A stretch of 64,000 nucleotides of DNA from Escherichia coli (GTDB lineage: Bacteria; Pseudomonadota; Gammaproteobacteria; Enterobacterales; Enterobacteriaceae): assembly GCF_965641715.1 (NCBI RefSeq), contig NZ_OZ282453.1. The stretch is one strand, 5' to 3'. Of the stretch, positions 3,499 to 20,995 are shown piece after piece. How positions within the stretch are numbered: the first letter of the stretch is position 1; each line of letters starts with the position of its first letter. Made by a program: the position numbers and the translations under genes. The notes beneath the pieces are model-generated. The model was not told where the DNA came from. It did no database searches and saw only the letters and a program-made list of their open reading frames with translations.

Positions 3499-4269
3499 GT
3501 GCCTGGTTTGAAGATTACGCTTTTGCAGCAACCACTGGTGTGGATGGATGGTCCTGCCAACCTGCGCCATTTTGATCGTCAACTGGAAGGTATTACCGGG
3601 CGCGATGTGATCGTTCTACCGGAGATGTTTACCAGCGGCTTTGCCATGGAAGCGGCAGCTTCGTCGCTAGCGCAAGATGACGTAGTGAACTGGATGACAG
3701 CTAAAGCGCAGCAGTGCAATGCGCTGATTGCAGGCAGTGTTGCATTACAAACGGAGTCTGGTTCTGTTAACCGCTTTTTGCTGGTTGAGCCGGGCGGCAC
3801 GGTACATTTTTATGATAAGCGTCATCTGTTCCGCATGGCAGATGAGCATCTACATTATAAACCGGGCAATGCGCGAGTGATTGTGGAATGGCGCGGCTGG
3901 CGTATTTTGCCGCTGGTGTGCTACGACTTACGTTTTCCTGTGTGGTCGCGCAATCTCAACGATTATGACCTCGCCCTGTACGTCGCCAACTGGCCTGCTC
4001 CGCGCTCTCTGCACTGGCAGGCATTGCTGACGGCCCGCGCGATTGAGAATCAGGCGTATGTGGCGGGATGCAATCGCGTCGGCAGCGATGGCAACGGCTG
4101 CCATTATCGCGGTGACAGCCGGGTGATTAATCCACAAGGCGAGATTATCGCTACTGCCGACGCGCATCAGGCAACGCGCATTGATGCGGAGCTGTCGATG
4201 GTGGCATTGCGGGAATATAGAGAAAAGTTTCCGGCATGGCGGGATGCGGATGAGTTTAGGTTGTGGTGA
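3499..4269 (+). CDS. yafV: Nitrilase/omega-amidase family hydrolase YafV
   Basis: ORF 3490..4269; probable GTG start at 3499 giving [11 protein letters not shown]; carbon-nitrogen hydrolase family features and conserved position next to ivy. Confidence 0.85.
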
Positions 4270-4289
4270 GTGGGTGTTGTGTTTAGGGC

Positions 4290-4500
4290 AGGGGAGAGTC
4301 GGGGAAGACTACGAAAGCCCGCTCTCCTGCGACCACTTTTATCATAGGAGTGTGGAAGTGCTTTACCATCAATCGCGATGACGTCTTTGTCATTTGATGA
4401 ATGGCAGTCACGCATCCAGTTAATAAAGCACTCGTGAAATTATACTGAACGGATACAAGACATAACTCTAATTATGGTGTCGTGAACAGGATTACCATTT
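4290..4500 (-). mobile_element. Fragment of an ISAs1-family (H-repeat-associated) transposase gene, N-terminal portion only
   Basis: Minus-strand translation gives [40 protein letters not shown], matching the N-terminal region of H-repeat/ISAs1 transposases; truncated at both ends; ~80% identical at DNA level to 6250..6430. Confidence 0.6.
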
Positions 4501-4539
4501 TCAAAATTACAATATTATTTGCAGTAATTATGTTATTAA

Positions 4540-5052
4540 TCATTGTGATATTTCCATCTCTGTGATTAATACCGGATAAGCATTTAATTGCAGAGTTTGC
4601 ACGAAATTATCGCAGATAACTGGCAATAACAATAACCCATCAGCCCGCTGCTGTAATACCTCCATTCGTTCTACTGATTCAACATTAACAACCAAACCAA
4701 GGGCATTTAGCGATTTAAGGATCTCCAGATGTTCACTCATCCAGCGCAGAGAAAAAGGATCATCACCAATTATAAAAACAGGCCCCCAGCCGGTTAATAA
4801 CTGGCGTTTCATTACGGAACCAGGATGAAGTCGAGTACATATTACAGGAAATACCCCCTGTTGCGATGGTTCCGATGATGTGGATAATTCAGAAATATTT
4901 TCCATTGTTAGTGAAGAATTAACATGCATTAATAATGGTGAAACAACCTCACTTTCCTTGCTAGTAATGGCTGCACTAATCTGAAAGGAAAATAACAATA
5001 TTATTACGTATAAACTCATTTTTAACATAACACATTCAATCCGTTTATTCAT
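4540..5052 (-). CDS. Hypothetical protein with N-terminal hydrophobic signal/anchor (170 aa), AT-rich
   Basis: ORF with hydrophobic N-terminus (MSLYVIILLFSFQISAAITS); low GC relative to flanks; sits between two H-repeat fragments. Function unknown. Confidence 0.4.
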   Translation of the reverse strand: MNKRIECVMLKMSLYVIILLFSFQISAAITSKESEVVSPLLMHVNSSLTMENISELSTSSEPSQQGVFPVICTRLHPGSVMKRQLLTGWGPVFIIGDDPFSLRWMSEHLEILKSLNALGLVVNVESVERMEVLQQRADGLLLLPVICDNFVQTLQLNAYPVLITEMEISQ

Positions 5053-5118
5053 GTTATAGAATAATGATGCTATAAATCATCATTAATGTTCAATTATTTA
5101 ATCACACAATTTAAAAAA

Positions 5119-5622
5119 TCATTGACCAATGTGAATTGGCAATGTACCACTCAAGTTAAAATCACTGAATATTTTATCAATTTCTCTTGCAGTTTCTATA
5201 TATTTAACCTCTTTCGTACTTGCATTATAAATAGCCCAAGCCTCGGGATGGGATGTTCCACCAAACCTTACAAAAAAACTTGATTTCATATTATTATATA
5301 AATTAACATCAGGAAAAGGATCTTCTCCAAAATTAGTAGTATTGAATAATGAAAGTTCGTATCGCTTAGAAAATTCTGTTGGTAGGATAGCTTCACTGCC
5401 ATCAATAGCATTCATCCAGAGTTTGTTACCATTATATTCCAACAATAATCTCTGTTTTGCATGTGTCTTATCTCGTTCTTTAACGACAGCGAATACCTTT
5501 TTAACAACTTGCTGTGCGGATGGTCCTATTGTATTACCAAAAGCTGGCAACCCGATTTTGCCATAAACACTCTCCTGAATGAAATAAATATCCGTTTTAT
5601 CGGCCTCGACAATATCTACCAT
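5119..5622 (-). CDS. Hypothetical protein (167 aa), AT-rich, no recognisable motif
   Basis: Intact ORF between H-repeat fragments; the position suggests an orphan toxin/immunity-type cargo ORF, but nothing in the sequence confirms this. Confidence 0.4.
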   Translation of the reverse strand: MVDIVEADKTDIYFIQESVYGKIGLPAFGNTIGPSAQQVVKKVFAVVKERDKTHAKQRLLLEYNGNKLWMNAIDGSEAILPTEFSKRYELSLFNTTNFGEDPFPDVNLYNNMKSSFFVRFGGTSHPEAWAIYNASTKEVKYIETAREIDKIFSDFNLSGTLPIHIGQ

Positions 5623-5850
5623 TTATCCCTCCAAACAAGACCTGACTCCAGGACAAGAGCATAGTGTGTAGTAAACACTTCATGCTCTTGCCCTGACCAT
5701 TGAAATAACAACTTTCGTTTGTTTACTGTACGCTGTCTAAATAGCTGCGTGGAATAAAGTTGCACTTTTTATCATCCCTTGCAGAACAAGATTACGAAAG
5801 CCCGCCCCCGCAAGGACTGACGCGAGGTAGTCTCTGTCCGCAGCTGCTTT

Positions 5851-6620
5851 TCACATCTTACATCTTGCCCCTGCCTTGATTATCTTATCTTTCGTTAAAA
5901 TATTAATAGCGATCTTCCGTATCCCTGAAAATAATTCTGCTGCATTTCCTCTTCTTATTTTGAAGTCGTCTTTATTCATTACCACGTCCAGATGCCAGTG
6001 CAATTTATTCTCCACTTGCCAGTGATTTCGGTTCGCTGTGGCGAACTTCTCTGCGGTTAAATCAGCAGAAATGCTATAATATCTGACCGTCATTTCGGGA
6101 TTTTTCTTTTGTTCTGCTATTATTGAGCGAAATGAGACTGCCATGCATAATTTCTTCAGCCCTTTCCATTCAAACGTAAAATCAATAAATTCATCAGAGA
6201 CATGCAAACAATATGAAGACGGGTTTTAATGACATAAATTGCTCCCTTGTGACGACTTTTATCATAAGAGTGCCGGAGCGTTTTTCCATCAATTGTAATG
6301 ACGTCTTTATCATCTGAAGAATGACAGTCACGCATCCAGTTAATAAAGCACTCATGAAATTTTTCAGGACTGATACAGGATACAACTCTGGCAATGATAT
6401 CGTGAACAGGAATACCATTTTCAAAATCACCATATCACTTCAAAAAATCGGGATGTGTTTCCCCAAATCCTCTATATCTTCCCAGCATTATGCACCAGAA
6501 ATAACGGCGCAAATAGTTAACAGATAGAATATCTGGCAATTTATGTTCCACTTTCCAGGCTTGCCTGTAATCGGGGATAATAGAAATATGTTCCATCAAT
6601 TTTTTAAGTTCCATTTTGCC
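5851..6620 (-). mobile_element. Degenerate ISAs1-family (H-repeat) element: transposase gene with internal deletion and frame disruption
   Basis: Minus strand encodes [18 protein letters not shown] ... [25 protein letters not shown] (N-terminal part, ~6620..6250) joined to the C-terminal part [12 protein letters not shown] ... [37 protein letters not shown] (ORF 5851..6207); the middle of the transposase is missing. Confidence 0.7.
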
Positions 6621-6759
6621 CCCCTTAATTATGCAATGAGTATTTGATCATGTATAAGCAATGAAAAACAGCTTTAGGTAATAAGGAACACCTCAATTAT
6701 TGAACATAAAATGCGAATTATTTAGTACAAAAAAAGCAGCATTACGTGATTTTTCCCTG

Positions 6760-6817
6760 GGAGTACAGTGTGAAGTTTCCGGCATGGCGGGATGCGGATG
6801 GGTTTGAACTGGGGTGA
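6760..6817 (+). repeat. Diverged duplicate of the yafV 3' end (~58 bp, ~80% identical to 4210..4269)
   Basis: aagtttccggcatggcgggatgcggatg is identical to the last codons of yafV, followed by a diverged tail that still ends in gtga. Confidence 0.6.
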
Positions 6818-6871
6818 TTAGGCACTACATGTCTACATTTTCCCGGTCACCACCCCCTCAATCTTATGAAC

Positions 6872-8965
6872 TTAACCTCGGCTCACCGTTTTCGATTCCA
6901 TCCAATAAATGACCCGGTTGGATGTGGGCTGATCGCCAACAACTTTGCCATCTGCAGAGATTAGCTTCAGCTCTTTATTAGCCTCATCACCGAAGTAAAT
7001 CATGCGGTAGCGAAAATAACCGCCCCAGGGTTCGCGTCCACCCAGCGAACTTTGCATAAACCAGGCGCGGGAGTCGTGAACCTGGTCATCATAGAGAGCC
7101 AGTAATTCAGCGCAGGGCTGAGTACGCGTTCCCGTTCCCAGTGAATCAATAAAAAATTGTGGATAGAGTCCGTCTCCCATAGCCTTAATTTGCTGATATT
7201 CTTTTGCTTCATCATCGCCATTAATCAGATACACCGGATATTTAGGAATGACATCCACAAGAATCTGAATGGCTTTCTCCATGACGCTGCCGTTAATATC
7301 GCGCGTCCATCCTTTATAATCGCTCTGAAATTCTCGGGCTGCCTCTCGCAACTGATACTGAGCATTGGTTGGGTCAAGGATAGGAATGCCCTGATTACTT
7401 TCATCAAGTGTGCCATTCCCTTTCTGCTTGTTCGCCCGCTCTTTTTCAATATTTTCCATTTGTTCTTTACGCGCTTTAGCCTCTTTATCAAGTCCATCTT
7501 TATCCAGCTGTGGCGCCTTAATATAAAAAGGTTGCACAAGAAGGCTGTTATTCGCATAGCGACCGATACGCCAGGCGGTGATCCAGCCGATCTGATCGCT
7601 AATTGCGCTTTCAAGAACCTGGGCAAGTTGATAGGAGTGATAATCTTCCCTCGTATCAATCATTTCTTCTGTACCCTGCAAGGTGGTGTTCAGCAGCGTT
7701 TGTCGCCAGATGTTGAAGCGTTTTGTTAATGAATTAGCAATCGTAAATTCCTTTACGCTAGAAGGACTCATAATTCGCAGAGGCGACACACCTTTTATTA
7801 ATGGAGTAACAAATTTAGAATAAACAGCAAGTGGTGCTCCTGAATCAAATGCAGCAAGATACATATCATGCAGTGCTATCTGAGAAAGAATTTCGCCTGA
7901 GTCACCACAGGACTTCCCCTGATCGCGAACGGGATAGCCACCACCGACATCAGAGTGCATCCCCGGATAGATAATTTCCTCTGCATTTAAAGGATAATTT
8001 CCGTCTGGACGACGGATTGAATCCAGCGGAAAGCACAGCCGCTGCTCATGCGCGGCAACGAAGTGGCGGCAGCATTTAATCAGGCCGGGAAACTGCCTCT
8101 CATCAGGGAGTTGCTGAGTACTATCGGCCCATCCCATATGACCGGCAGCGCCCGGTAAAACATGCGCCGCCCCCACAGAAGCTACGGTATCCAGCAGCCC
8201 CAAAAACTCAATACTGACAGCTAACCCGGCCAGCATCACCTGTTGCTCCTGCGGGCAAGCTAACTGAGTCAACCAGTTAACAAAAGTTCGTGCTTCCGCT
8301 GCGCCACGGGAAAATCCGTAGATAAACAGCTTTACGTTTAGCAGGCGCGGACTGGCTTGCTCTAACAGTCCCTGTAATTTTTCCAGGTAGGGGTTAATCA
8401 CATTGCGACGATTCACTTCACCAGTCATAGGCCAGGGAGCGCGCATAAGAGGAATGTGCTCTTTTGCCACATTATCATCCAGTCGCTTATGGGAAGGGTC
8501 AATGGAATAGCTCAGGGCATCCACGAGGCGTAATAATGCCCAATTAATTCGATCTTCACCACCAGTAGCGAACTCCAGCCCGCTGTTGCTGTAATCCATT
8601 TCACCTATCTTGGGAAATGGTGTGCCTACACCCGGTATATAGTAGTTAAAATATCCCTGTTCTTCTGCGTTCTGATAGGTCGTATGAAACAGTTTGGCAA
8701 TATTGATTGGGTGTCCAGGAGTGTCATTATATTCATTATTATTTGTACCATCAAAAAACAGACTAATATGCAGACTTTGATTACACGTAAAGCCAATTCT
8801 AAATCCAGCCTGTTTACTACAGTTGGTTTTGTGCTCTTCTGTTTTATTGATTTGTTTTAGGTAGTTCGCGTTTACCTGCGCTTCAGATAATATTAATCGC
8901 CCATTTTCAGGAAACGCTGGGGGGGCATAACACGGAAAAGCCAGACCACTTATTTCGCTGGACAT
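6872..8965 (-). CDS. T6SS phospholipase effector candidate, Tle1-like (DUF2235 alpha/beta hydrolase, 697 aa)
   Basis: GxSxG nucleophile motif in KLFIYGFSRGAAEARTFVNWL; last gene of a vgrG-remnant/DUF4123 cargo module; family assignment from motif and context only. Confidence 0.55.
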   Translation of the reverse strand: MSSEISGLAFPCYAPPAFPENGRLILSEAQVNANYLKQINKTEEHKTNCSKQAGFRIGFTCNQSLHISLFFDGTNNNEYNDTPGHPINIAKLFHTTYQNAEEQGYFNYYIPGVGTPFPKIGEMDYSNSGLEFATGGEDRINWALLRLVDALSYSIDPSHKRLDDNVAKEHIPLMRAPWPMTGEVNRRNVINPYLEKLQGLLEQASPRLLNVKLFIYGFSRGAAEARTFVNWLTQLACPQEQQVMLAGLAVSIEFLGLLDTVASVGAAHVLPGAAGHMGWADSTQQLPDERQFPGLIKCCRHFVAAHEQRLCFPLDSIRRPDGNYPLNAEEIIYPGMHSDVGGGYPVRDQGKSCGDSGEILSQIALHDMYLAAFDSGAPLAVYSKFVTPLIKGVSPLRIMSPSSVKEFTIANSLTKRFNIWRQTLLNTTLQGTEEMIDTREDYHSYQLAQVLESAISDQIGWITAWRIGRYANNSLLVQPFYIKAPQLDKDGLDKEAKARKEQMENIEKERANKQKGNGTLDESNQGIPILDPTNAQYQLREAAREFQSDYKGWTRDINGSVMEKAIQILVDVIPKYPVYLINGDDEAKEYQQIKAMGDGLYPQFFIDSLGTGTRTQPCAELLALYDDQVHDSRAWFMQSSLGGREPWGGYFRYRMIYFGDEANKELKLISADGKVVGDQPTSNRVIYWMESKTVSRG

Positions 8966-9504
8966 GTTGCTGGTTCCTTCATCTCGCGGGGTTCTTTGAT
9001 GGGATAATTCGGTGTGCCATACTTCTGGCAGACGGTTGTCACTTTAATCTGATTACACGTTAGAAAATGAACGGTCAGGCCACAAAGCTCAGCATCGTAT
9101 TCCGGGATATCAACAATTGCGGTATGTTGAATGTAACTTTCTTTTAGTTTTTTCTCCCAGGCCTGATATTTATCCCAATCCTTATAGAGTGGTGGCGGAG
9201 GTACTGTATTTGGGGTAATTTCCCATTCAACCTGGGCTTTTAATCCAGAATGCCACTTATCTGGCAGCATAACGCAACAATATCCTCCACCGTCTCCGAA
9301 TGGACCAATATTTGGTCCGCCGTAACCATTGATGTGTATATAATTTATATCCTTATCCGTATGATTTATCCCATTAATATCCACAGCAGTGTAATCACCG
9401 CTATTTTTTGCCATTGAACAGCCTGATACTGCAAATAAAATCATTAGAGAATAACATTTGAAAATCGTTCTCATACTGATACTTTTCCTTATTTTGCTGG
9501 ACAT
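8950..9504 (-). CDS. Small lipoprotein, candidate Tle immunity protein (Tli-like)
   Basis: Lipobox-type signal peptide MRTIFKCYSLMILFAVSGC if translation starts at ATG 9474 (ORF track start 9504); 16 nt overlap with the start of the Tle1-like gene. Confidence 0.45.
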   Translation of the reverse strand: MSSKIRKSISMRTIFKCYSLMILFAVSGCSMAKNSGDYTAVDINGINHTDKDINYIHINGYGGPNIGPFGDGGGYCCVMLPDKWHSGLKAQVEWEITPNTVPPPPLYKDWDKYQAWEKKLKESYIQHTAIVDIPEYDAELCGLTVHFLTCNQIKVTTVCQKYGTPNYPIKEPREMKEPATCPAK

Positions 9505-9817
9505 GTTGCTGGTTCTTTTACTTTGAGAGATTTTAATTGATGGGTATTGTTTCTACGACAATAAAGTTTTGACAAAGAAGCAAATAAAATGCATATCTTT
9601 CGATTGTCACACATTGGAATATCGACAGAGCATTGATGATATTACGCAAAATATATTGCAGCCAAGTGAACTGACATTACGATCGAACACAAATGCAACA
9701 TGATGGATACTACCATTACATGTCGAGCTTGATTTTCCGTTTATTTCACGATTATCTCTTGATATTAACAGCTACGGACTTTTAAACAGATAAATCTCCC
9801 CGTACATCACCACAATA

Positions 9818-10588
9818 TTATCCTTCGAAGTCCCGCAAAGCTCCGAAATATTTCGCGTCATTGGCTCTGAAAGCAATATCAAGACAGTGGGCAAAATAGC
9901 TTTCCTGACTGAGTTCACTGACTGCTTTCTCCTTCATCAGGACTTCAGCGTCGCAGATACAGCCCATCAATCCCACCTGTACATCATCCACCCGATTCAT
10001 CTCCGGGTTGTCAGTAAGCCTGCGTTCTGGTGAAAAACTTCCTGATTTCCAGTTAATCTCACCATCACGGTCTAACCAGCTCCAGAACAACGCAATATCA
10101 GTAAATGTCGCCTGCTGCTCGTTAGTCAAAACATGTGTGAACAGTAAAGGGAACACCCGATTATCATAGTAACGCAGCAATCCGGTCTGTTCTTCCCACT
10201 GAACCTGTGACAATACCTGAAGATGCCGCCCCAGCAGGTCGAATGTAAGAGGGGATATCAACAAAGTAAGACGCGGCGTATCAGCAAATGACGCCATCAG
10301 TTGTGCCAGAAATTTGCGATGGCTACTGAGCGCAAAGTACAGGCGTAACACTACAGGGGAATACTCCATCGTCTCAGCTTCAGGCGTTCCTTCAAACAGG
10401 GCATACCAGTGAATGGCTGGCCACAGATGAAGTATCTCATTTTGCAAAGGTTGGTCGGTTCCAGCCTGGTCAACAAGCACATCTATGTAATCCAAACCAG
10501 CGGCAGAACAGAATGATTCAGCCTGCTTCAGCCAGATAATATATTTGTCTTGATCGGTAGCGCGTGGCGATACTGTTATCATCGTCAT
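9818..10588 (-). CDS. DUF4123-family T6SS effector adaptor/chaperone (Tap/Tec-like)
   Basis: 256 aa; N-terminal YIDVLVDQAG and central LLRYYDNRVFPLL resemble the DUF4123 signature segments (compare YAIVDGA / LMRFYDPRNIWVL in ORF 18198..19040); immediately follows a vgrG tail. Confidence 0.55.
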   Translation of the reverse strand: MTMITVSPRATDQDKYIIWLKQAESFCSAAGLDYIDVLVDQAGTDQPLQNEILHLWPAIHWYALFEGTPEAETMEYSPVVLRLYFALSSHRKFLAQLMASFADTPRLTLLISPLTFDLLGRHLQVLSQVQWEEQTGLLRYYDNRVFPLLFTHVLTNEQQATFTDIALFWSWLDRDGEINWKSGSFSPERRLTDNPEMNRVDDVQVGLMGCICDAEVLMKEKAVSELSQESYFAHCLDIAFRANDAKYFGALRDFEG

Positions 10589-10594
10589 TCTCCC

Positions 10595-11051
10595 TTATCC
10601 ACGAGGCGCAAAAGCGGCGGCGGCTTCCTGCGCCCTTTTCAGGCACTCCTTACACACCGATTTTTCTGGCGCTTCCTCACCCTCATCGTTGTTATCATTC
10701 TGATCGGACGATGCATTACTATCATTTTGCTCAGCCGCTAAACTTTTATCATCTGCCAGCGCTTTCAGAACCGCCGGTTGCAGCGTCGGCACCGGCGTTC
10801 CCGGACTACCGCCGCTATTGAGATTGATTTTCGGCCCGACGATGTCCACGCCCCCTGAATGGATGACCACAAACGAACCGCCCACCTTCAGGCTTATCCG
10901 GCTGCTGCTCTCCAGCACCACATCGCCCTCCACCTTTAACCACGCCACCGCAGTCAATGGCATCACCGGTTCTGGCGGTAGGTTTATCGTCGATAAAGGC
11001 GGAAGAGGTGTTTCCGGCTCTTAAGAAATATTTACGCACATGCACCAGCAT
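10595..11051 (-). pseudogene. Remnant fusing the 3' end of a PAAR gene to the 3' tail of a vgrG gene (internal deletion)
   Basis: One frame encodes FIDDKPTARTGDAIDCGGVV (PAAR C-terminus, compare PAAR 15133..15417); the adjacent frame encodes LKVEGDVVLESSSRISLKVGGSFVVIHSGGVDIVGPKINLNSGG (VgrG tail, compare vgrG2) followed by an acidic linker. Confidence 0.6.
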
Positions 11052-11082
11052 TACAGAAAATAAAACCTGCGATACATTTTAA

Positions 11083-11859
11083 TCAATAAGGTTGCTTTAC
11101 CAAGCTTCCATCGATATTGATGGAAAATTCATTAGACCTAATATGAACAGAATGTTGCTCATCATCTTTATCTAATATTTGATTAACAAAAAAAAACGTA
11201 TTTTTATCAAATTCATAATTATCACATCCCTCTCCACTAAATGATATAGCTCTAAAATCATATTCATTACATGAGTATCTTTTCATCAAAATAGAGAGGA
11301 ATGTTTCATTAATTGATTTTAATACAAACCATTTTCTCCTAACAAGTTTGTAGTTTAATGTTTTTATATGATAATTATTTAAACTGGGGAGAAATGAATG
11401 CATATCATTCAATTTTACATCAAAAGATATTTTTTTACCTGCCGTAATTTCCACCCATCGGCTCAAATTCAAATCAAGCTCAAAGGGACAAAAGCCTCCT
11501 AGATAGTCTAAGCTAATATTTCCTGATGTAATCAAGAATTCGTCATCACACAAAGCATCAAATACATCTCCATTTCCTTTTTGGAAGTTCTTTGGATAAT
11601 ATATTCTGGGGAGAAAATACGATTTAGTACTACTGTTATAAAAAGTTATAGTAGCTAAAATATTTTCAGCATGTGGCTTAACCACCAATTTAACAACAAC
11701 ATCATTTGTTAATTCATTACTTATATTTTCCTCTGGCGCTAAATTATGGCTAAGATAAATAATTGGTTTCCCATTGTCACTTCTTCGTTCAAAACCGAAT
11801 CTGTATTTTTTTACAAAAAGATTCTCATTATCTATTGCAATTGCAATAGATAATGGCAA
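11083..11859 (-). CDS. Hypothetical protein, candidate immunity protein for the upstream metallopeptidase-like effector; N-terminal signal peptide is out of frame
   Basis: Body ORF starts at TTG 11859; a 31-codon ORF from ATG 11923 (one nt after the effector stop) encodes MKRLAFYNLNYVVLMVFFSLFFAIIYCNCNR in the other frame; the two frames would join if one base were removed from the homopolymer tract. Confidence 0.45.
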   Translation of the reverse strand: MPLSIAIAIDNENLFVKKYRFGFERRSDNGKPIIYLSHNLAPEENISNELTNDVVVKLVVKPHAENILATITFYNSSTKSYFLPRIYYPKNFQKGNGDVFDALCDDEFLITSGNISLDYLGGFCPFELDLNLSRWVEITAGKKISFDVKLNDMHSFLPSLNNYHIKTLNYKLVRRKWFVLKSINETFLSILMKRYSCNEYDFRAISFSGEGCDNYEFDKNTFFFVNQILDKDDEQHSVHIRSNEFSINIDGSLVKQPY

Positions 11860-11924
11860 AAAACAAAGAAAAAAAAACCATCAGTACAACATAATTTAGA
11901 TTATAGAAAGCCAACCTCTTCATC

Positions 11925-12728
11925 TTATTTCCCCGTCAACTCATCAAAACATTTTTCTATCTCTTTTATTTTATCCTCTACTTTTTTTGCTAACATATTC
12001 TCATCTTGAGCTTCAATATCTTCATCATTTAATTTTATATAAAAATATCTTTCAACATTATATGCATTCTCAAATAACTGATCTTTACGCAATGTAACCA
12101 GATCATTAGCCACTGAAACATGTTTCTCATAGCTAACTTCATCCTTATTACTTGTTGCGAACTTATTAATACCCGTATAATCCTGAGTCCACATACCACC
12201 TTTTTGATTGTCACCCCAATACCAAAATATATGGGACATTTCATGGCAAAGTGTACTTACATGAGAGTCTCTACCTGTAACCGACTGTTTTATACCATGT
12301 CTGTATTCAAAATGCGCTCCGATATTTACAATGTAAGGAGGATCAAGATGTGGACTAATAAAAGCAGCAAATTCATTGCAGTTCGTATAATCTTTATAGC
12401 TTTCGATCGTCAAACCATTTGCAATCGTCATTATTCGTCTGATGCCATCCATTATGAATAGTCTCGCTTGCATTCGTTTCCCAGTATCTTCCCCAACTTT
12501 TCTGATTTTTATAATGTCCTCGCCTTTAAGGCCAAAAACTTTAATAAAATCTCGTTGTTGTTCCCCCTCCCATGACATAATATCATCTGCTCTTTTCAAT
12601 AAAACCATTTTCTGTGCTTTACAAGCCTTACTCATCATTATTTTAAATTTATTTGTAATTTTTTGCGGTACTACACATACTTGCGACTCGGGTTGTGAAG
12701 TCCCACTAGTATTATTATTCCCTGCCAT
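11925..12728 (-). CDS. HExxH zinc-metallopeptidase-like T6SS effector candidate (268 aa)
   Basis: HEMSH motif followed by WTQDYTG (loosely aspzincin-like); start ATG at 12728 (MAGNNNTSG) overlaps the vgrG2 stop; the longer ORF 11925..13103 is not used because it overlaps vgrG2. Confidence 0.55.
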   Translation of the reverse strand: MAGNNNTSGTSQPESQVCVVPQKITNKFKIMMSKACKAQKMVLLKRADDIMSWEGEQQRDFIKVFGLKGEDIIKIRKVGEDTGKRMQARLFIMDGIRRIMTIANGLTIESYKDYTNCNEFAAFISPHLDPPYIVNIGAHFEYRHGIKQSVTGRDSHVSTLCHEMSHIFWYWGDNQKGGMWTQDYTGINKFATSNKDEVSYEKHVSVANDLVTLRKDQLFENAYNVERYFYIKLNDEDIEAQDENMLAKKVEDKIKEIEKCFDELTGK

Positions 12729-15114
12729 AATGCCCCTCCGGCTCAATATAAAAAGCATCCGAAAATAACAATTGGACTTTAATTTCCTGTGCTGTATCTG
12801 TATAAAATATTTCTGTATATCCCTCTCTGTCTGTTTCACCACGCGTCTGTGTGCCATCCTCAAAAAAGGCAATATACTGCGTCTCTGAATACGGTATCCC
12901 GTCATCGTCCGTAAAATGGAACTGGAGGGTATATTTTTCAGGATCATCTTCATCGTCACCGCCATCACCTCCTCCGTCACTCCCTGCGGGATTGCCACTA
13001 TCCTCTCCGGAGTCATCACTGCCATCATCACTGCTCTCATCCTCCGGAGCCTCCAGCACCGCCGGCTGCATCGTCCCCACCGGTGTCCCCGCACTGCCCC
13101 CACCGTTCAGGTTTATCTTCGGCCCGGCAATATCCACTCCGCCCGGCTGAATGACGATAAACGAGCCACCCACCTTCAGGCTTATCCGGCTGCTGCTCTC
13201 CAGCACGATATCCCCGTCCACTTTTATCCCCAGCGCGCCACTCACCTTCTCCGCCAGGTCCCCCTTCACCTCCAGGCTGTGCTTCCCCTCCACCAGGCTG
13301 ATGTGGTTACCCGTCGTCTTATGCTCCTGCTTCCCTTTCACCGTCACCCTACGGTCATTTCTGACGTACAGACCGTCATCGTGACTCACGCTCACCGTCC
13401 GGTCATTTGTCACCTTCAGCGTCTGGTCGTTACGTACCGTTATGCTCCGGTCGTTCGCCACCGTGATACTCTGGTCGTGGCCTCCTTCTTTTCTGGTCCC
13501 GACCTCAACCGTCTGCCCCTTCACCACCGTTATCTTCTGGTCGTTACCAATGGTCTCCGTATGGTCATGTTTCACATCCGTTGTCCGGTCGTTGAGCACC
13601 TCCGTATCCATGTTCTTCTGCGCATGGATATACACCTGCTCATTACTGGTGGCGTCCTCAAAGCGCAACTCGTTAAATCCGCTTCCTTTATAGGTCTTCG
13701 ACCGTATCGTCATCTGCGTCTTCGTCCCCGGCAGGCTCCCCGGCGAACGGTTGTCCTCATGGTACGTCCGGCCCATGACCAGCGGCTGGTCCGGGTCTCC
13801 GTTCAGGAAGTCAACAATCACCTCCTGACCCACCCGCGGTATCGCCAGGTTACCAAACCCCGGCCCCGCCCACGCCTGTGATACCCGCACCCAGCATGAA
13901 CTCGCCTCCGTCATCCCGTGATAACGGTCCCAGTGGAACTTCACCCGTACCCGGCCATGTTCGTCGCAGAATATCTCCTCACCCTTCGGCCCGGTGACAA
14001 TGGCGCTCTGCGGCCCGTCCACCTTCGGTTTGCTTTGCAGCCGTGGACGCCACGTCCGGTCCGCCGGTATCACCTCTAACTGATTTCCCAGCGTGGTTCC
14101 TCTCCCCTGGCTGCCGTGCAGCGCCTGCGGCTGGCTTCCTGACAGTATGCTCTGTACCACCTGCCATTCACGGTTCAGCATCTTCTGCGGATGCCCCGTC
14201 AGCGTAAACCGCGTTCCCGGCCACAGCCTCGGCGAATTACTCTGCCCTGTGGCCTTTTCCGCATCACTGCGCAGGCTCTCCATCTGGTACAGCGTGAAAT
14301 CCTTGCCGTGCTGCTCATCCTTGAACCTTCCCGGATAATCAAATATCTCGTACTGCGCCAGCTGTCCGTTCAGGTTCTCACCCTGCTGCTCATACATCCC
14401 CGGCCAGTCCGGCACCTTAAACGTGTAATCCTGGCTCTGCACCGACGACGGGCGGACATGCGCCTCATAACGGAACATACTGAGACACTCCGTCTCCGCT
14501 CCTGCCGATGTGTCCGGGTTAAACGGAAGCTCTCCCGCCTGTGACAGCCCCGCCACATCGTCGCACAGCGTCAGCTTCTGCTCCGGACTGTCCGCCGCAA
14601 ACCGCTCAAAGAAGAAAATTCCTTCTTCCGCCCACAGCCGAGCCAGAAACGCCAGGTCGCTCTCCCCGTACTGGACACAGAACTCCCGCGCCGGATGGTC
14701 TTCATAAAACAGCGGAGTCCACTCCGTGACGCCGTTCTCGTTCAGTAACGTGGCCGATATCGTCCGGATATCCTGCTGCTGAAAAATACGAAAGTTCTGC
14801 CGCAGCCCGCACCGCCATAACGGCGGCTCAATACGCAGGTGATAACGCATCTGCCAGCCGTTGTTCTCCTGCATGCCAAAGCCCGCCACCACGCCGGTGA
14901 CATAACGCTGCGCCACCGCGCCCTGCCAGATGGCCAGCGTCGCCTTCTTCTCCAGCAGCATCTCCGCCGTCTGCATAAAAGAGTCGCTGGCAACATCCAC
15001 ACTCATCACAAACGGATAAGACTGGTTCTGGATTAACCTGAAATTCACCACTGCAAAGGTGTCCGGCTCCTGGCCGTCAATCTCCAGCGTAAAGCGCAGA
15101 CCGTTTAAGGACAT
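12715..15114 (-). CDS. vgrG: VgrG spike protein with C-terminal extension (799 aa)
   Basis: N-terminal 480 aa identical to the vgrG at 19037..20995; gp27/gp5-like repeats (VKGDLAEKVSG..., ISLKVGGSF...); acidic D/E/G/S linker and an extra ~60 aa C-terminal domain. Confidence 0.9.
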   Translation of the reverse strand: MSLNGLRFTLEIDGQEPDTFAVVNFRLIQNQSYPFVMSVDVASDSFMQTAEMLLEKKATLAIWQGAVAQRYVTGVVAGFGMQENNGWQMRYHLRIEPPLWRCGLRQNFRIFQQQDIRTISATLLNENGVTEWTPLFYEDHPAREFCVQYGESDLAFLARLWAEEGIFFFERFAADSPEQKLTLCDDVAGLSQAGELPFNPDTSAGAETECLSMFRYEAHVRPSSVQSQDYTFKVPDWPGMYEQQGENLNGQLAQYEIFDYPGRFKDEQHGKDFTLYQMESLRSDAEKATGQSNSPRLWPGTRFTLTGHPQKMLNREWQVVQSILSGSQPQALHGSQGRGTTLGNQLEVIPADRTWRPRLQSKPKVDGPQSAIVTGPKGEEIFCDEHGRVRVKFHWDRYHGMTEASSCWVRVSQAWAGPGFGNLAIPRVGQEVIVDFLNGDPDQPLVMGRTYHEDNRSPGSLPGTKTQMTIRSKTYKGSGFNELRFEDATSNEQVYIHAQKNMDTEVLNDRTTDVKHDHTETIGNDQKITVVKGQTVEVGTRKEGGHDQSITVANDRSITVRNDQTLKVTNDRTVSVSHDDGLYVRNDRRVTVKGKQEHKTTGNHISLVEGKHSLEVKGDLAEKVSGALGIKVDGDIVLESSSRISLKVGGSFIVIQPGGVDIAGPKINLNGGGSAGTPVGTMQPAVLEAPEDESSDDGSDDSGEDSGNPAGSDGGGDGGDDEDDPEKYTLQFHFTDDDGIPYSETQYIAFFEDGTQTRGETDREGYTEIFYTDTAQEIKVQLLFSDAFYIEPEGHYGRE

Positions 15115-15132
15115 AAATACCTCTCAGACATA

Positions 15133-15417
15133 TCAGCCTATATTTACCGTACCGCCACCAATGACCACACCACCACAGTCGATGGCATCACCGGTTCTGG
15201 CGGCGGGCAGGCCGTCAATAAAGACGGTTGAAGAACCTCTGGCGATTTTACGGGGATGAGGTGGATGCTTCGGTTTAGCATGCGGCGTCAGCGGATCTCC
15301 CTGGCGAGCAGCAGGTAATCCATCAATAAATACCGTGGATGAAGCCGCAATGATGACTGTCTCACGGTAGCCATCATGCTGAGTACCTTTGTCGTTTAAT
15401 CTGGCAGCTAAAGGCAT
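15133..15417 (-). CDS. PAAR-domain spike tip protein (94 aa)
   Basis: Duplicated SSTVFIDGLPAAR(Q/T)GD motifs and C-terminal AIDCGGVVIGGG; located directly upstream of vgrG2. Confidence 0.8.
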   Translation of the reverse strand: MPLAARLNDKGTQHDGYRETVIIAASSTVFIDGLPAARQGDPLTPHAKPKHPPHPRKIARGSSTVFIDGLPAARTGDAIDCGGVVIGGGTVNIG

Positions 15418-15527
15418 AATTCCTCCTGTTCAGAATATCAGCGACAAAAAATTTAAAAAACGGTAAGGTGCTTAACTCAGCAATAATCACCTTACCGGAC
15501 ATCCTGATTTGTAGCCCAACAGGTTAA

Positions 15528-16538
15528 TCAAGTAACAGGGATAAACTGACCATCAATCAGCGAAAATACCGGAGCGTAATACCCCATACGCTCTTCACCA
15601 CTTTCATCTGTAAAACGGTAAGTCAGTGGGGAATACGTTGGCATTGATTTATTATATAATTGCACCATACGCCCATTATTCATAACCCGGACGGCATAAT
15701 CGTTCCACCTGATAGGCAGTATTTTGGCTTTTCCACCCTCAAGGTTATCTTTCGGAAAGTGGGAGAGTAATATGTCATCCTCAGAGTCACCGGTTGTGGC
15801 TGACCATGCCTTCAGCGCCTCTGTGTTATATAACTTAAGACGTGCTCTGTCCCCGCTGTTAATAATTGTTGCCATTTCGGTATAGGTGGCTTTTAACTTC
15901 CGTAGCTGCTCGTCGCTTCCGGTATAGGGGGTTGCCCGCGTCCAGGCCCATTCAGGAAGCCCCGTCACCGTGACTTTTTGTGTAAACTGATACACCTTCA
16001 TCCCTTTCGGAAAATAGGTTTCATCAAAATAATCTGGATCTATAAATCCTGGCTCCGCCTGCTCTGCCAGGATCTCTTTCCTGATAACGGGATGCACGCT
16101 GTCTGACCGGGCTTCAGGTATGCCCTGCTGGTTGATGGTCACTTTTATCGAAGAAAGCAGGGTTTCTTCCTGTTTAATAAAACGAACCAAATCCAGGCTG
16201 CACCCTGCTTTTTGGAAAAAACGCCCCCGTTCTTCCGTACTGGCAGGCTTGTCAGAAAACCATCCTAACGCCCCGATTTCCAGACTGATTTCATTTTCTC
16301 CATTCGCCATCAGCATCATGGCATTGGTGCTGGATATGGCCCCGGTGGAATCACCATTCTCTCGCCATGCGTTCATTCGGTTACTGAAGCCGAGGACACC
16401 GTTGGTTTTGATGGCACAATATGATTCCTCAATATTAAACTTACTGCGGATTTTTTGTGGATTTTCACCCGAGTACAATCCTGCTCCCATAATACCTCCT
16501 GACAGTAAAATAACCGATATTAAATGTTTTACCTTCAT
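15528..16538 (-). CDS. Secreted hypothetical protein (336 aa), candidate immunity protein for the 523 aa effector
   Basis: N-terminal signal/anchor MKVKHLISVILLSGGIMGAGLYSG; immediately downstream of the effector candidate. Confidence 0.45.
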   Translation of the reverse strand: MKVKHLISVILLSGGIMGAGLYSGENPQKIRSKFNIEESYCAIKTNGVLGFSNRMNAWRENGDSTGAISSTNAMMLMANGENEISLEIGALGWFSDKPASTEERGRFFQKAGCSLDLVRFIKQEETLLSSIKVTINQQGIPEARSDSVHPVIRKEILAEQAEPGFIDPDYFDETYFPKGMKVYQFTQKVTVTGLPEWAWTRATPYTGSDEQLRKLKATYTEMATIINSGDRARLKLYNTEALKAWSATTGDSEDDILLSHFPKDNLEGGKAKILPIRWNDYAVRVMNNGRMVQLYNKSMPTYSPLTYRFTDESGEERMGYYAPVFSLIDGQFIPVT

Positions 16539-16604
16539 AATTATTTTCTCTTAAAAGGAAAAGACTCTCATTATATTGAGTGATTTTAATTGCTGTAATA
16601 TCAC

Positions 16605-18176
16605 TTAATAATCCATGCCTATTGTCCACGTTGTCACTGGCTTCGGCGGTATTACTTTTTTCTCTACCGTGCGTTCTTTACCGTATAAATTAACCCGCAA
16701 TGGTGAATCTTTTATCTCCATAGGATCACATAACTGCCACTCAACGGTATCTTTCTTCTCGGGTTTCTCACTCTTTTCTTTCCCCTTTCCCTTCCCTTTA
16801 CTTTCACCATAAGATACATCCGCCTTAAATTCGAACTTTCCTTTAATGCCGTCATGAAATAATGCCAGGTCCAGTCCGTCATCATGTGAATCGAATCCAA
16901 AGCCAGCTTTCGCCTCTATAGAAGCGGTCGCTTCTGCGGTCAGTTGTACAACAAAAACATTCGCCTCAAACGTCGCACTCACCACACCTTTTAAACCGAG
17001 CTTGATGTTACTTTCCTTTACATTAAACTCCCATTTTTTATCCTTTTCAGCGTATACTGCGCCAAGATCAAGATTAATCTCCGCTGAAATCTCGATATAG
17101 CATTCAACACTGGCTCCGTTTTTACGGAGATATTCACGACATCTGTTGACCAATGACTCGACTTTACAGTATGCACATATAAATGAAATAATATCGAATC
17201 TGAACGACGCTTCAAAAAATGGGGCACCAAACAAACCATAAAAATGACAGGGGCCATCCTGGATATCGGTATATTGATAGGCATACGATATACCCAGTTT
17301 AACGGGTTCTATTTTTGCACTGAACAATGCATATTTGCGCGTACCATTATTATTGTCAGGATCTGGCGCAAAATATTTATTGACATTCTTGACCAGAGAG
17401 TCAATTCTTCCTATCTGTTCCAGTTGCTTTGTTTGTCGAAGTTTTTTTATCTCTTTTTCATATTCACTTGTGTGTTCAACATTAGCTATTTTTACGCCAA
17501 AATCGACAGTCAGGGAAGTCTTGTTTATCCACTCAAACTCAGCAGTGGTATTTGTCCAGCCGCTACGGAGTTTATTTTTATCCCTGGGCTTGGTGTTCTC
17601 CATTGCGTCCCTGGCTTTTATTCTTTCGTCACGCCGCTCTTTTACTGTTCGCGTCTGTTTTGATGACGAAATCTCATAGCTGAACCCTGTAGTAAACCTA
17701 ATTTCCATTGTAGGATAAACATCAATTTCAACATAATTGCCACATTCGTAACAACTGTCAATTCTGACTGAATAATGGGCAGGTTCATAATGATTCTTAA
17801 GTGGAGAGGATATTGCCCCCAAATAATCCCATGGTACGCGAAATGTACCCATAGCAATTATTTCACCTTCAGACAAGTTATCATCCAAAGTGACCTTATT
17901 AGGTATTCCGAAAGGTTGCAGTATCTTATGATTATTTTCTGATTCTTCCTCTAACCATGCCTCATGTGTTCCACTTTTATCGCACTGGTAGGTAATGGTA
18001 ATTATACCATCACATCCGGAACCATCATCCAGTAGCTTAAAACGCGCCACTCCTTCTTTTGACCAGAAATGTTTCTCGCCGGCCTCTGGAAAATCACTAA
18101 TAACATCAAAAATACATGGATCAGGTATGCCGCATTCCACACAGGGCTTTCCGGCTGTCGAAGATGGAGATGTCAT
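16605..18176 (-). CDS. Unassigned T6SS effector candidate (523 aa), DUF4123-adaptor dependent
   Basis: Follows vgrG1 and a DUF4123 adaptor; no catalytic motif recognised; lysine-rich low-complexity stretch (KGKGKGKEKSEKPEKK) near the C-terminus. Confidence 0.5.
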   Translation of the reverse strand: MTSPSSTAGKPCVECGIPDPCIFDVISDFPEAGEKHFWSKEGVARFKLLDDGSGCDGIITITYQCDKSGTHEAWLEEESENNHKILQPFGIPNKVTLDDNLSEGEIIAMGTFRVPWDYLGAISSPLKNHYEPAHYSVRIDSCYECGNYVEIDVYPTMEIRFTTGFSYEISSSKQTRTVKERRDERIKARDAMENTKPRDKNKLRSGWTNTTAEFEWINKTSLTVDFGVKIANVEHTSEYEKEIKKLRQTKQLEQIGRIDSLVKNVNKYFAPDPDNNNGTRKYALFSAKIEPVKLGISYAYQYTDIQDGPCHFYGLFGAPFFEASFRFDIISFICAYCKVESLVNRCREYLRKNGASVECYIEISAEINLDLGAVYAEKDKKWEFNVKESNIKLGLKGVVSATFEANVFVVQLTAEATASIEAKAGFGFDSHDDGLDLALFHDGIKGKFEFKADVSYGESKGKGKGKEKSEKPEKKDTVEWQLCDPMEIKDSPLRVNLYGKERTVEKKVIPPKPVTTWTIGMDY

Positions 18177-18197
18177 ATAATCTATCCGTTTGTCTTT

Positions 18198-19040
18198 TTA
18201 TTGCGGGATAAATCCCAGTTCCTGTTGTGCAAGTTCATGTACCCGAATATGTCCCGGGTATGACTGATTGCTGAGTTGTTCATACCAGTCATCCGGAATA
18301 TATCTGAGATCGATTATATTTTTTTTCAGTAATATAAGCGTCATTGTTCTGACGGAACGATCATCTGCTATATTTAATGACTGGCAAAAAGAGAAATAAT
18401 CTTCTGCCAGAATTCGGGATGATTCAGCTTTTGATAAATCATCCCATCCGTCTTTATCTACATTTTCTTCGATAAATGCAGATAATATATCAAGATAATT
18501 ATCCCGTGCCTTTCGTTCCAGTTGGCTATATTGTCTGTAACTCAGCGTCAGTTGTGATGGCCGTTCTGCCCTTATATTCATAGTTTCTGCGGGACGGACG
18601 GAAGAAAAATTATCCTCACGACATTCTTCACCATAGCGGGTACTTAGCTGTCTGACGGGGCTGATAAAAGAAAGAAGCTGGCGGGGGGTCAGAACTTCCG
18701 CTAATACCCATATATTCCGGGGATCATAAAATCGCATGAGAACAGGTTTCTCCTGTTCGGGGATCATAACCCACAGATAACGTCTGAAGTGTTGCTGTAG
18801 CTCACGTATGGATGACTCAGAAGTAAGATATATTCCCCACGGCGACGCCTTATCACTCAGCCATGCTTCAACTTCCGGAACAACCTCCACGAGATAAGGG
18901 GCCAGCGCGACCAGATCCGGTTGTATGGGTTCTGCATACAGACAACAGTGCGGGGGATTCACCTCGTTCAGAAAATCCAGCAATCCTTCCTCCACAGCGC
19001 CATCCACAATGGCGTACTGCACGGGTGCCGTTTCCATCAC
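18198..19040 (-). CDS. DUF4123-family T6SS effector adaptor/chaperone
   Basis: YAIVDGA near the N-terminus and LMRFYDPRNIWVL in the middle; 4 nt overlap with the vgrG1 stop. Confidence 0.65.
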   Translation of the reverse strand: MMETAPVQYAIVDGAVEEGLLDFLNEVNPPHCCLYAEPIQPDLVALAPYLVEVVPEVEAWLSDKASPWGIYLTSESSIRELQQHFRRYLWVMIPEQEKPVLMRFYDPRNIWVLAEVLTPRQLLSFISPVRQLSTRYGEECREDNFSSVRPAETMNIRAERPSQLTLSYRQYSQLERKARDNYLDILSAFIEENVDKDGWDDLSKAESSRILAEDYFSFCQSLNIADDRSVRTMTLILLKKNIIDLRYIPDDWYEQLSNQSYPGHIRVHELAQQELGFIPQ

Positions 19041-20995
19041 TTATCCTCCTTCGGACAATGCGACACGAACATCGAACCACTTCCGGCTGCGGCTTTCAGG
19101 ATCACCGGGCGCATCGGCAGGATCACATCCCCCGGACTGCCCCCGCCGTTAAGATTGATTTTCGCGCCCTTAATATCCACGCCGCCGGAATGGATCACCA
19201 CAAATGAACCGCCCACCCGCAGACTGATTTTGCTGTCGCTCTGTAAAACAATATCGCCCTGTACGCTGATACCCAGCGCGCCGCTTATTTTCTGTGCCAG
19301 ATCGCCTTTCACCTCCAGTCCCTGATTGCCCTCTGTCAGGCTGACGTGGTCTTTGGTGGTTTTATGGTCCTGTTTACCTTCAACCGTCACTTTCCGGTCA
19401 TTTGCCACCACCAGGGATTCATCATGCCCGATGCTGACCGTCCGGTCATAGTTGACCCGCTTATCCTTGCTGTTCAGCACAACGACCTGCATATTTTTCT
19501 GTGCGTGCAGATAAATTTCTTCCTTGTCCGTGGCGTCCTCAAACCGCAGTTCGTTAAATCCGCTTCCTTTATAGGTCTTTGACCGTATCGTCATCTGCGT
19601 CTTCGTCCCCGGCAGACTCCCCGGCGAACGGTTGTCCTCATGGTATGTCCGGCCCATGATTATCGGCTGGTCCGGGTCTCCGTTCAGGAAGTCAACAATC
19701 ACCTCCTGACCCACCCGCGGTATCGCCAGGTTACCGAACCCCGGCCCCGCCCACGCCTGCGATACCCGCACCCAGCATGAACTCGCCTCCGTCATCCCGT
19801 GATAACGGTCCCAGTGGAACTTCACCCGTACCCGGCCATGTTCGTCGCAGAATATCTCCTCACCCTTCGGCCCGGTCACAATGGCACTCTGCGGCCCGTC
19901 CACCTTCGGTTTGCTTTGCAGCCGTGGACGCCACGTCCGGTCTGCCGGTATCACCTCTAACTGATTTCCCAGCGTGGTTCCCCTCCCCTGGCTGCCGTGC
20001 AGCGCCTGCGGCTGGCTTCCTGACAGTATGCTCTGTACCACCTGCCATTCACGGTTCAGCATCTTCTGCGGATGCCCCGTCAGCGTAAACCGCGTTCCCG
20101 GCCACAGCCTCGGCGAATTACTCTGCCCTGTGGCCTTTTCCGCATCACTGCGCAGGCTCTCCATCTGGTACAGCGTGAAATCCTTGCCGTGCTGCTCATC
20201 CTTGAACCTTCCCGGATAATCAAATATCTCATACTGCGCCAGCTGTCCGTTCAGGTTCTCACCCTGCTGCTCATACATCCCCGGCCAGTCCGGCACCTTA
20301 AACGTGTAATCCTGGCTCTGCACCGACGACGGGCGGACATACGCCTCATAACGGAACATACTGACACACTCTGTCTCCGCTCCTGCCGATGTGTCCGGGT
20401 TAAACGGAAGCTCTCCCGCCTGTGACAGCCCCGCCACATCGTCGCACAGCGTCAGCTTCTGCTCCGGACTGTCCGCCGCAAACCGCTCAAAGAAGAAAAT
20501 TCCCTCCTCCGCCCACAGCCGCGCCAGAAACGCCAGGTCCGACTCCCCGTACTGCACACAGAACTCCCGCGCCGGATGGTCCTCATAAAACAGCGGCGTC
20601 CACTCCGTGACGCCGTTCTCGTTCAGTAACGTGGCCGATATCGTCCGGATATCCTGCTGCTGGAAGATACGGAAGTTCTGCCGCAGCCCGCACCGCCATA
20701 ACGGCGGCTCAATACGCAGGTGATAACGCATCTGCCAGCCATTGTTCTCCTGCATACCAAAACCCGCCACCACGCCGGTGACATAACGCTGCGCCACCGC
20801 GCCCTGCCAGATGGTCAGCGTCGCCTTCTTCTCCAGCAGCATCTCCGCCGTCTGCATAAAAGAGTCGCTGGCAACATCCACACTCATCACAAACGGATAT
20901 GACTGGTTCTGGATTAACCTGAAATTCACCACTGCAAAGGTGTCCGGCTCCTGGCCGTCAATCTCCAGCGTAAAGCGCAGACCGTTTAAGGACAT
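19037..20995 (-). CDS. vgrG: VgrG spike protein (652 aa, no C-terminal extension)
   Basis: Full-length VgrG architecture; first ~480 aa identical to vgrG2, diverging in the C-terminal third. Confidence 0.9.
   Translation of the reverse strand: MSLNGLRFTLEIDGQEPDTFAVVNFRLIQNQSYPFVMSVDVASDSFMQTAEMLLEKKATLTIWQGAVAQRYVTGVVAGFGMQENNGWQMRYHLRIEPPLWRCGLRQNFRIFQQQDIRTISATLLNENGVTEWTPLFYEDHPAREFCVQYGESDLAFLARLWAEEGIFFFERFAADSPEQKLTLCDDVAGLSQAGELPFNPDTSAGAETECVSMFRYEAYVRPSSVQSQDYTFKVPDWPGMYEQQGENLNGQLAQYEIFDYPGRFKDEQHGKDFTLYQMESLRSDAEKATGQSNSPRLWPGTRFTLTGHPQKMLNREWQVVQSILSGSQPQALHGSQGRGTTLGNQLEVIPADRTWRPRLQSKPKVDGPQSAIVTGPKGEEIFCDEHGRVRVKFHWDRYHGMTEASSCWVRVSQAWAGPGFGNLAIPRVGQEVIVDFLNGDPDQPIIMGRTYHEDNRSPGSLPGTKTQMTIRSKTYKGSGFNELRFEDATDKEEIYLHAQKNMQVVVLNSKDKRVNYDRTVSIGHDESLVVANDRKVTVEGKQDHKTTKDHVSLTEGNQGLEVKGDLAQKISGALGISVQGDIVLQSDSKISLRVGGSFVVIHSGGVDIKGAKINLNGGGSPGDVILPMRPVILKAAAGSGSMFVSHCPKEDK

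Follow-up and report, generated by a model that had tools for sequence, protein, structure and literature searches.

At the left edge of an Escherichia coli genome's type VI secretion system (T6SS) island, the end of the gene yafV is found twice, and the question raised by this locus is where the second copy came from. We analyzed it in a stretch of 64,000 nt of contig NZ_OZ282453.1 (GCF_965641715.1), hereafter the window, to which all coordinates refer. The resident yafV (3499..4269, plus strand), a 2-oxoglutaramate amidase gene according to the RefSeq annotation of near-identical genomes, is intact, encodes 256 amino acids (aa) and is 98% identical to the yafV of K-12. Its last 58 nt (4212-4269, plus strand) recur on the same strand at 6760..6817 as a stub, yafV', which consists of the last 18 codons plus the stop codon of a Pseudocitrobacter-type yafV. 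Our results indicate that this stub is probably the 3' end of a foreign yafV that entered E. coli joined to the effector and immunity genes tle1-tli1a, and that now abuts the resident island edge at the terminus of a defective insertion sequence (IS), ISAs1/H-repeat copy B.

The sequence-only reading of this locus had claimed that the yafV 3' end recurs beside a Tle1-like gene, and had named a low-complexity coincidence as the outcome that would overturn the claim. The recurrence is real. A repeat search aligned 4211-4274 with 6759-6822 in direct orientation, with 80% identity over 64 nt, and an in-frame comparison of 4212-4269 (4210..4269 in that reading) with 6760-6817 gave 47 identical positions out of 58, with the TGA stop codon at the equal position in both. 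The two copies share an exact core of 28 nt, AAGTTTCCGGCATGGCGGGATGCGGATG, at 4225-4252 and 6773-6800, which occurs nowhere else in the window and gave 0.00 matches in 100 dinucleotide-preserving shuffles, even when three mismatches were allowed. As frame and stop codon are conserved and the match extends to 2.5 kb in Pseudocitrobacter faecalis, as described below, a chance or low-complexity match can be dismissed. The first base of the stub is the base that follows the terminus of copy B (6759), and 54 nt separate its end from the Tle1-like gene's stop codon. A promoter and terminator scan of 4200-7000 found promoter-like sites no commoner than in shuffled sequence and placed nothing in the stub or the spacer. 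The stub most likely has no function; it would be a pseudogene fragment marking the border of the imported DNA.

Alignment of yafV ends across Enterobacteriaceae, which had been proposed as a check, identified the closest sampled relative of the stub. We compared the last 58 nt of yafV from at least 80 species-level genomes, among which Salmonella, Klebsiella, E. fergusonii and others were not represented. P. faecalis was the best match among the loci listed, with 54/58 identical positions, and the next best reached 46/58; the corresponding values were 43/58 for the yafV of E. albertii and 40/58 for the allele of a divergent Escherichia. At the sites that distinguish the yafV ends of E. coli and P. 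faecalis, the stub carries the P. faecalis base in seven out of seven cases and the E. coli base in none, and the C-terminal peptide ...DADGFELG* is common to the stub and P. faecalis yafV. Four changes are private to the stub, three of them in codons that turn YRE into YSV. None of the 5,426 complete E. coli genomes surveyed has an intact yafV with a stub-type 3' end. Between the P. faecalis genome that bears an island at this site and the island-free type strain of the species, the last 58 nt of yafV do not differ, and the allele is therefore native to that genus.

The similarity to P. faecalis runs past the yafV stop codon through the spacer and tle1. The segment 6759-9294, which comprises the stub, the spacer, tle1 and most of tli1a, aligns with P. 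faecalis GCA_965231505.1 as one colinear block with 89.8% identity over 2,548 nt, the individual segments matching at 54/58 positions (stub), 47/54 positions (spacer, 87%) and 90.3% of nucleotides (tle1). For comparison, the core genes flanking the island on both sides share 78.7-83.0% identity between the window and P. faecalis over about 10 kb. The genes of this P. faecalis region follow one another as DUF3304, tle1 (in two open reading frames, ORFs), a convergent intact CN_hydrolase gene of 256 aa (yafV), ivy and fadE. The stop codons of tle1 and yafV are 54 nt apart there (tle1 ends at 9887 and yafV at 9942 of locus L087), and the convergent intergenic spacer of the window (6818..6871) has the same length of 54 nt. 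The P. faecalis tle1 is a frameshifted pseudogene (392 + 235 aa), whereas the tle1 of the window is intact. In a search for Tle1 among 5.8 billion proteins, the nearest relative outside E. coli was the P. faecalis fragment (85% aa identity), followed by proteins of Kluyvera (75%) and Salmonella (74%). Taken together, the diagnostic sites and the colinear foreign block establish the foreign identity of the stub, which is therefore best read as the tail of a foreign yafV imported attached to tle1-tli1a.

Within E. coli, the stub is present in about 70 of the 5,426 complete genomes, and about 66 of these about 70 have the same junction of IS end, stub and tle1. A derivative was found in LP5-1 (locus L002, 6120-7130): the resident edge, copy B, the stub and a further 22 nt are retained, with the same IS-end/stub junction as in the window, and an IS1 then joins aspV directly. 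This strain has therefore lost the entire T6SS island but retained the stub.

To the left of the stub, the sequence-only reading had seen two H-repeat fragments around two AT-rich ORFs. Both fragments are present, at coordinates different from those first assigned: copy A occupies about 4300-4520 (not 4290..4500) and copy B 5782-6759 (not 5851..6620), both on the minus strand. Copy B is defective, with frameshifts, stops and a 312-nt internal deletion at 6226/6227, which is defined by comparison with a full-length copy in Tig207, to which copy B aligns in two pieces with 90% nt identity. It has CAGGG-type inverted ends on both sides, the unit being roughly 1.3 kb in full copies, and is a pseudogene here, annotated in the RefSeq entries of near-identical genomes as "ISAs1 family transposase, frameshifted; internal stop". 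The full-length ISAs1 of Tig207 ends in CAGGGCAAGATTACG... and ...GATCTTTCCCTG. The left end of copy B, CAGAACAAGATTACG at 5782, is a degenerate form of the CAGGGCAAGATTACG of full copies, and its right end, ...TTTTTCCCTG, stops at 6759 (minus strand CAGGGAAAAATCA at 6747-6759). This terminus is fixed at 6759 because PMV-1 and E. albertii, with the same kind of right end, diverge immediately after ...CCCTG. Copy B thus has flanks of different origin, resident E. coli DNA on the left and foreign yafV on the right.

Copy A is a remnant made of a terminal repeat (4300-4327) and an internal transposase fragment (4321-4520), the latter sharing 81% identity with positions 6241-6440 in copy B. Missing are the other end of the element and, from the transposase, the N-terminal part and most of the C-terminal half; RefSeq annotates the remnant as a partial ISAs1 transposase in near-identical genomes. 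It is separated from yafV by a native 30-nt spacer (4270..4299), which ends at the ISAs1-A terminus and is common to K-12, PMV-1, E. albertii and Tig207. The left junction, with the terminal repeat 30 nt 3' of the yafV stop codon, is the same in the window, PMV-1 and K-12, where the adjoining transposase piece is the pseudogene yafF, and E. albertii has an ISAs1 at the same spot and with the same left junction.

Between copies A and B lie the two AT-rich ORFs, orf170 and orf167. Of the 5,426 genomes, 758 have this pair (541 of them at a coverage of 80% or more), in each as a single copy and without exception at this locus. The segment is thus about ten times as common as the stub (758 vs about 70 genomes). 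In Tig207 the pair is 76% identical at the nt level and stands to the right of a full-length ISAs1, without copy B. Copy B with the same 312-nt deletion borders cpi1/cpe1 in PMV-1 and LF82, and does so in 298 genomes in all. The wider spread of the ORF pair, the shared site of copy A and the presence of copy B beside cpi1/cpe1 therefore show that the resident edge is old and shared: yafV, copy A, the ORFs and copy B form the older and more widespread part, and the stub with tle1 is the newcomer. The suggestion that the ISAs1 segment with its two orphan ORFs had been inserted later did not withstand these counts, the copy A site in K-12 and E. albertii, the diverged pair in Tig207 and the position of copy B at cpe1/cpi1. 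We also considered copy A, the two ORFs and copy B as a single composite transposon, and rejected it: copy A has lost one end and the greater part of its transposase, no target-site duplication is present, and the segment is confined to a single locus in 758 genomes.

How could the joint have formed? The donor arrangement, still visible in P. faecalis, would have had an intact yafV and a tle1 in convergent orientation, 54 nt apart. This yafV/tle1-tli1a block would have been imported into E. coli, physically joined, and would have become linked exactly at the terminal inverted repeat of copy B to a resident edge consisting of the cell's own yafV, the ancient copy A, orf170, orf167 and copy B, with loss of the first 713 nt of the foreign yafV at the joint. 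Two routes may be envisaged. An ISAs1 might have entered the foreign yafV 58 nt ahead of its stop codon, after which homologous recombination within or to the left of the IS would have linked it to the resident edge. Alternatively, a transposase-mediated adjacent deletion might have extended from the right end of copy B into the foreign yafV on its right.

Several observations weigh against this account. None of the 5,426 E. coli genomes contains the intermediate that this account predicts, a foreign or hybrid yafV with an ISAs1 inside it. The density of single-nucleotide polymorphisms relative to PMV-1 showed no clear crossover inside copy B and no step near its right end; diffuse patches of divergence were seen at 4300-4500 and 6000-6300. 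Copy B has the same 312-nt deletion in both types of junction, and any move must have needed transposase supplied in trans. Intact ISEc1 copies are found at this locus in other strains, nested in older copies, and a source of transposase is therefore plausible. No target-site duplication was seen at copy B or at any other ISAs1 copy of the locus (four copies inspected), and the flanks of copy B, ...ATCATCCCTTG on the left and GGAGTACAGTG on the right, have no repeat between them. The absent duplication at copy B fits a rearranged joint; a literature check of the length of ISAs1 duplications yielded nothing usable. Finally, an identity of only 90% means that P. faecalis did not itself supply the block but is the donor's closest relative among those sampled, and a closer donor lineage may exist, as several genera fall outside the loci compared.

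The order of events favored by the sequence-only reading deserves the closest attention among the alternatives. It supposes that the island arrived first with a foreign yafV end, as a hybrid yafV beside tle1, and that the E. coli-type yafV end, copy A, the ORFs and copy B were inserted or restored by recombination afterwards, splitting off the stub. The end product would be topologically the same as that of an import joined to an existing edge, with copy B abutting the stub, and the intact ISEc1 of some strains would make transposase available. Nevertheless, we regard this order as unlikely. The segment does not behave as a mobile unit, being found once per genome and always at this site; copy A is without one end, and the left end of copy B is degenerate with no target duplication; the segment is about ten times commoner than the stub and has left traces in K-12 and E. 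albertii; and a hybrid yafV directly beside tle1 is present in none of the 5,426 E. coli genomes.

The same reading had described the second copy as a relic of a donor-lineage yafV or else an old duplication. The relic stands, on the 89.8% block shared with P. faecalis and the seven sites; the duplication does not. Although the copies form a direct repeat with IS material between them, as would be expected if the E. coli yafV 3' end had been duplicated in situ, for example during an IS insertion, and had since diverged by 20%, the neighboring DNA near the stub differs between E. coli strains by no more than 1-3%, all seven distinguishing sites in the stub show the base of P. faecalis, its match to E. 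albertii (43/58) and to the divergent Escherichia (40/58) is poor, and the similarity to P. faecalis continues for 2.5 kb past the stop codon. In-situ duplication is effectively refuted by this colinear foreign block and is hardly credible. Transfer in the opposite direction, of a tle1 cassette from E. coli to Pseudocitrobacter, would make the stub an E. coli sequence. The intact tle1 of E. coli, as opposed to the split pseudogene of P. faecalis, and the lack of an island at this site in the P. faecalis type strain speak for it, yet the allele of the stub is the yafV 3' end of both the island-bearing and the island-free P. faecalis genomes and of no intact E. coli yafV, which renders this direction very unlikely. 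For tle1 alone the direction could differ, if a third lineage supplied the cassette to both species. Import of a foreign yafV end together with tle1-tli1a therefore remains the reading that we favor.

The imported genes are the terminal cassette of the island. The tle1-like T6SS phospholipase effector gene (6872..8965, minus strand) encodes 697 aa, and its homologues carry PF09994 and PF22137. The adjoining immunity gene tli1a (DUF3304; 8950..9504, minus strand) matches NF053804 (Tli1a_fam) with 211 bits against a cut-off of 110. Tle1-like domains next to a Tli1a-family gene mark the two as a predicted Tle1/Tli1a effector-immunity pair. The Pseudocitrobacter-like block stops at 9294, within tli1a, and a Pseudocitrobacter-like origin is shown only for this tle1-tli1a cassette. 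The idea that the yafV relic had been brought in with the island consequently holds for the cassette up to 9294; from 19528 on, the remainder of the T6SS island matches ordinary E. coli islands of the PMV-1 type at 96% identity. Megablast of the window against PMV-1, together with the annotation, delimits a variable effector tail of 12.8 kb (6760..19527): the two sequences are colinear to 6759, separate for the length of the tail and become colinear again inside vgrG at 19528; where the window has this tail, the PMV-1-type island has 3.5 kb (cpi1-cpe1-DUF2169). At least two alternatives, tle1/tli1a with the foreign stub and cpe1/cpi1, have exactly the same copy B boundary. Three stacked modules can be made out in the tail, namely tle1-tli1a-DUF4123 with a vgrG fragment, which is the module compared with other genera; an M35-peptidase-like gene accompanied by a second vgrG; and a further three ORFs that precede the vgrG at which PMV-1 homology resumes.

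Regarding the wider setting, the window opens with the E. coli core genes fadE (307-2829) and ivy (2872-3345, minus strand) to the left of yafV, and the island ends on the right at the tRNA-Asp gene aspV (43483-43559), with dnaQ next. The T6SS island between yafV and aspV is the one already known from E. coli as the aspV T6SS island, which in LF82 is pathogenicity island (PAI) I; it and the H-repeat gene yhhI have been described in that strain (PMC2941450). Empty sites were also seen. In a divergent Escherichia (locus L005, 6772-6950) yafV is directly followed by aspV, and in the P. faecalis type strain DSM 27453 (locus L016, 6772-7050) dnaQ is found ~280 nt downstream of yafV; the island at the yafV/aspV site has therefore been gained and lost within genera.

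Further traces of ISAs1 are present at the island edge. A hairpin of 47 nt (5649..5695), detected as an inverted repeat and by pattern match, lies just upstream of orf167, and both of its arms resemble ISAs1 terminal repeats (CAGGRCAAGAGCA), so that it looks like only two element ends left back to back. We rejected a dispersed miniature inverted-repeat transposable element as an explanation, as the hairpin occurs as a single copy, at this locus only, in 546 E. coli genomes. In E. coli B1.H1.1 (locus L098, 4092-5700), the position of copy B is taken by an intact ISEc1, beyond which come nested ISAs1 ends and a group II intron. The ISAs1 copies seem to insert into one another at the island edge, none with a target-site duplication.

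The GC content of the region of the two AT-rich ORFs is 29-40%, against 50-59% in yafV. Homologues among Rhs tips or known immunity proteins, for which a search had been proposed, were not found for either ORF, and the K-12 genes yafU and ykfM were rejected as homologues as they have no DNA similarity to them. orf170 (4540..5052, minus strand) encodes a DUF2859 / PFL_4695-family "integrating conjugative element protein" domain, matching TIGR03765 with 120.6 bits (cut-off 59.75) over residues 67-170 and DUF2859 (PF11072) with an E-value of 2.8e-28, and its N-terminus is hydrophobic and, by eye, signal-peptide-like. It had no match in PADLOC. No conjugation genes are annotated near it in the contexts read, where its neighbors are yafV, IS remnants and T6SS effector genes; in Tig207 a thioredoxin-domain gene comes next beyond the ORF pair.

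The uncharacterised protein encoded by orf167 (5119..5622, minus strand) had no match in Pfam, NCBIfam, PADLOC or PDB sequences, and its AlphaFold2 model (mean predicted local distance difference test score 83.9) no fold neighbor in the PDB. An exhaustive HMMER search retrieved 31 relatives, most of about 190 aa and 30-40% identical, compared with which the E. coli protein is without about 30 residues present in the rest of the family. Five of the relatives were read in their contexts (L089, 2444-3016; L091, 6001-6579; L090, 6001-6582; L092, 6001-6591; L095, 3452-4033): one directly follows hcp, one follows tssBC, and three are in islets of two or three genes. In the tssBC context and in each of the three islets, a small ORF without a Pfam match comes next on the same strand; the two that were translated (L090 and L091) encode multi-pass membrane proteins, and a DUF805 gene is also present in two of the three islets. 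In the hcp context the only small membrane ORF is on the opposite strand. Judging from these gene neighborhoods, the family is a candidate for a small T6SS toxin whose immunity partner would be a membrane protein, and orf167 would fit a decayed orphan T6SS toxin-like gene, which is a lead rather than a result.

What does the second yafV end mean? It is a small natural label, recording that a weapon of E. coli against other bacteria, a Tle1 phospholipase, came together with its antidote from a Pseudocitrobacter-like relative and preserving both the gene order of the donor and the direction of transfer. It also indicates that the aspV/yafV T6SS island has, at its left edge, a fixed platform scarred by ISs at which alternative effector cassettes are exchanged, and it may be of use in tracing how T6SS arsenals diversify in gut Enterobacteriaceae. 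A wider proposal, which we put forward tentatively and hold to be rather doubtful, is that the dead terminus of copy B might be a recurrent docking point for swaps of T6SS tails, including cassettes from other genera, and that, separately, orf167 might be a decayed member of an undescribed T6SS-linked toxin family of unknown fold, usually accompanied by a multi-pass membrane immunity protein. The stub itself is a clear but ordinary scar of gene transfer. The aspV T6SS island, H-repeat/ISAs1 pseudogenes at its edge, swappable tails, relics of homeologous import and IS-bounded rearrangements are all familiar; new here are the reading of the stub as the remnant of a Pseudocitrobacter-type yafV that gives the origin of tle1-tli1a, and a dead IS terminus as the common left boundary of alternative tails.

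Set beside known systems, the locus belongs with the E. coli aspV/yafV T6SS-1 island, found as PAI I in LF82 and in extraintestinal pathogenic strains and surviving in K-12 as the relics yafF, yafU, ykfM and yafT: the site between yafV and aspV and the core T6SS genes are the same, and an H-repeat/ISAs1 pseudogene adjoins yafV. The variant of the window differs in its 12.8-kb tail, which ends in tle1-tli1a plus the foreign stub and is found in about 70 of the 5,426 genomes. The yafV-tle1 junction of P. faecalis GCA_965231505.1 is colinear with it across the yafV 3' end, the spacer of 54 nt, tle1 and DUF3304, the nt identity being about 90%; however, yafV is intact and tle1 frameshifted in that genome, whereas the window keeps 58 nt of yafV and an intact tle1. 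Copies A and B resemble ISAs1 / H-repeat (ISEc1) elements in their CAGGG termini, a full length of about 1.29 kb, their ISAs1-family transposase and the occurrence of decayed copies at the edge of a polymorphic toxin locus, but both are dead through deletions and frameshifts, no target-site duplications were seen, and copy B serves as the shared boundary of alternative cassettes. Lastly, as in the swappable T6SS effector-immunity tails exemplified by the vgrG-linked pairs tle1/tli1 and cpe1/cpi1, alternative cassettes occupy one position and the right crossover is in vgrG, with the difference that the left boundary in the window is an IS terminus and that a piece of the donor's flanking housekeeping gene has been kept.

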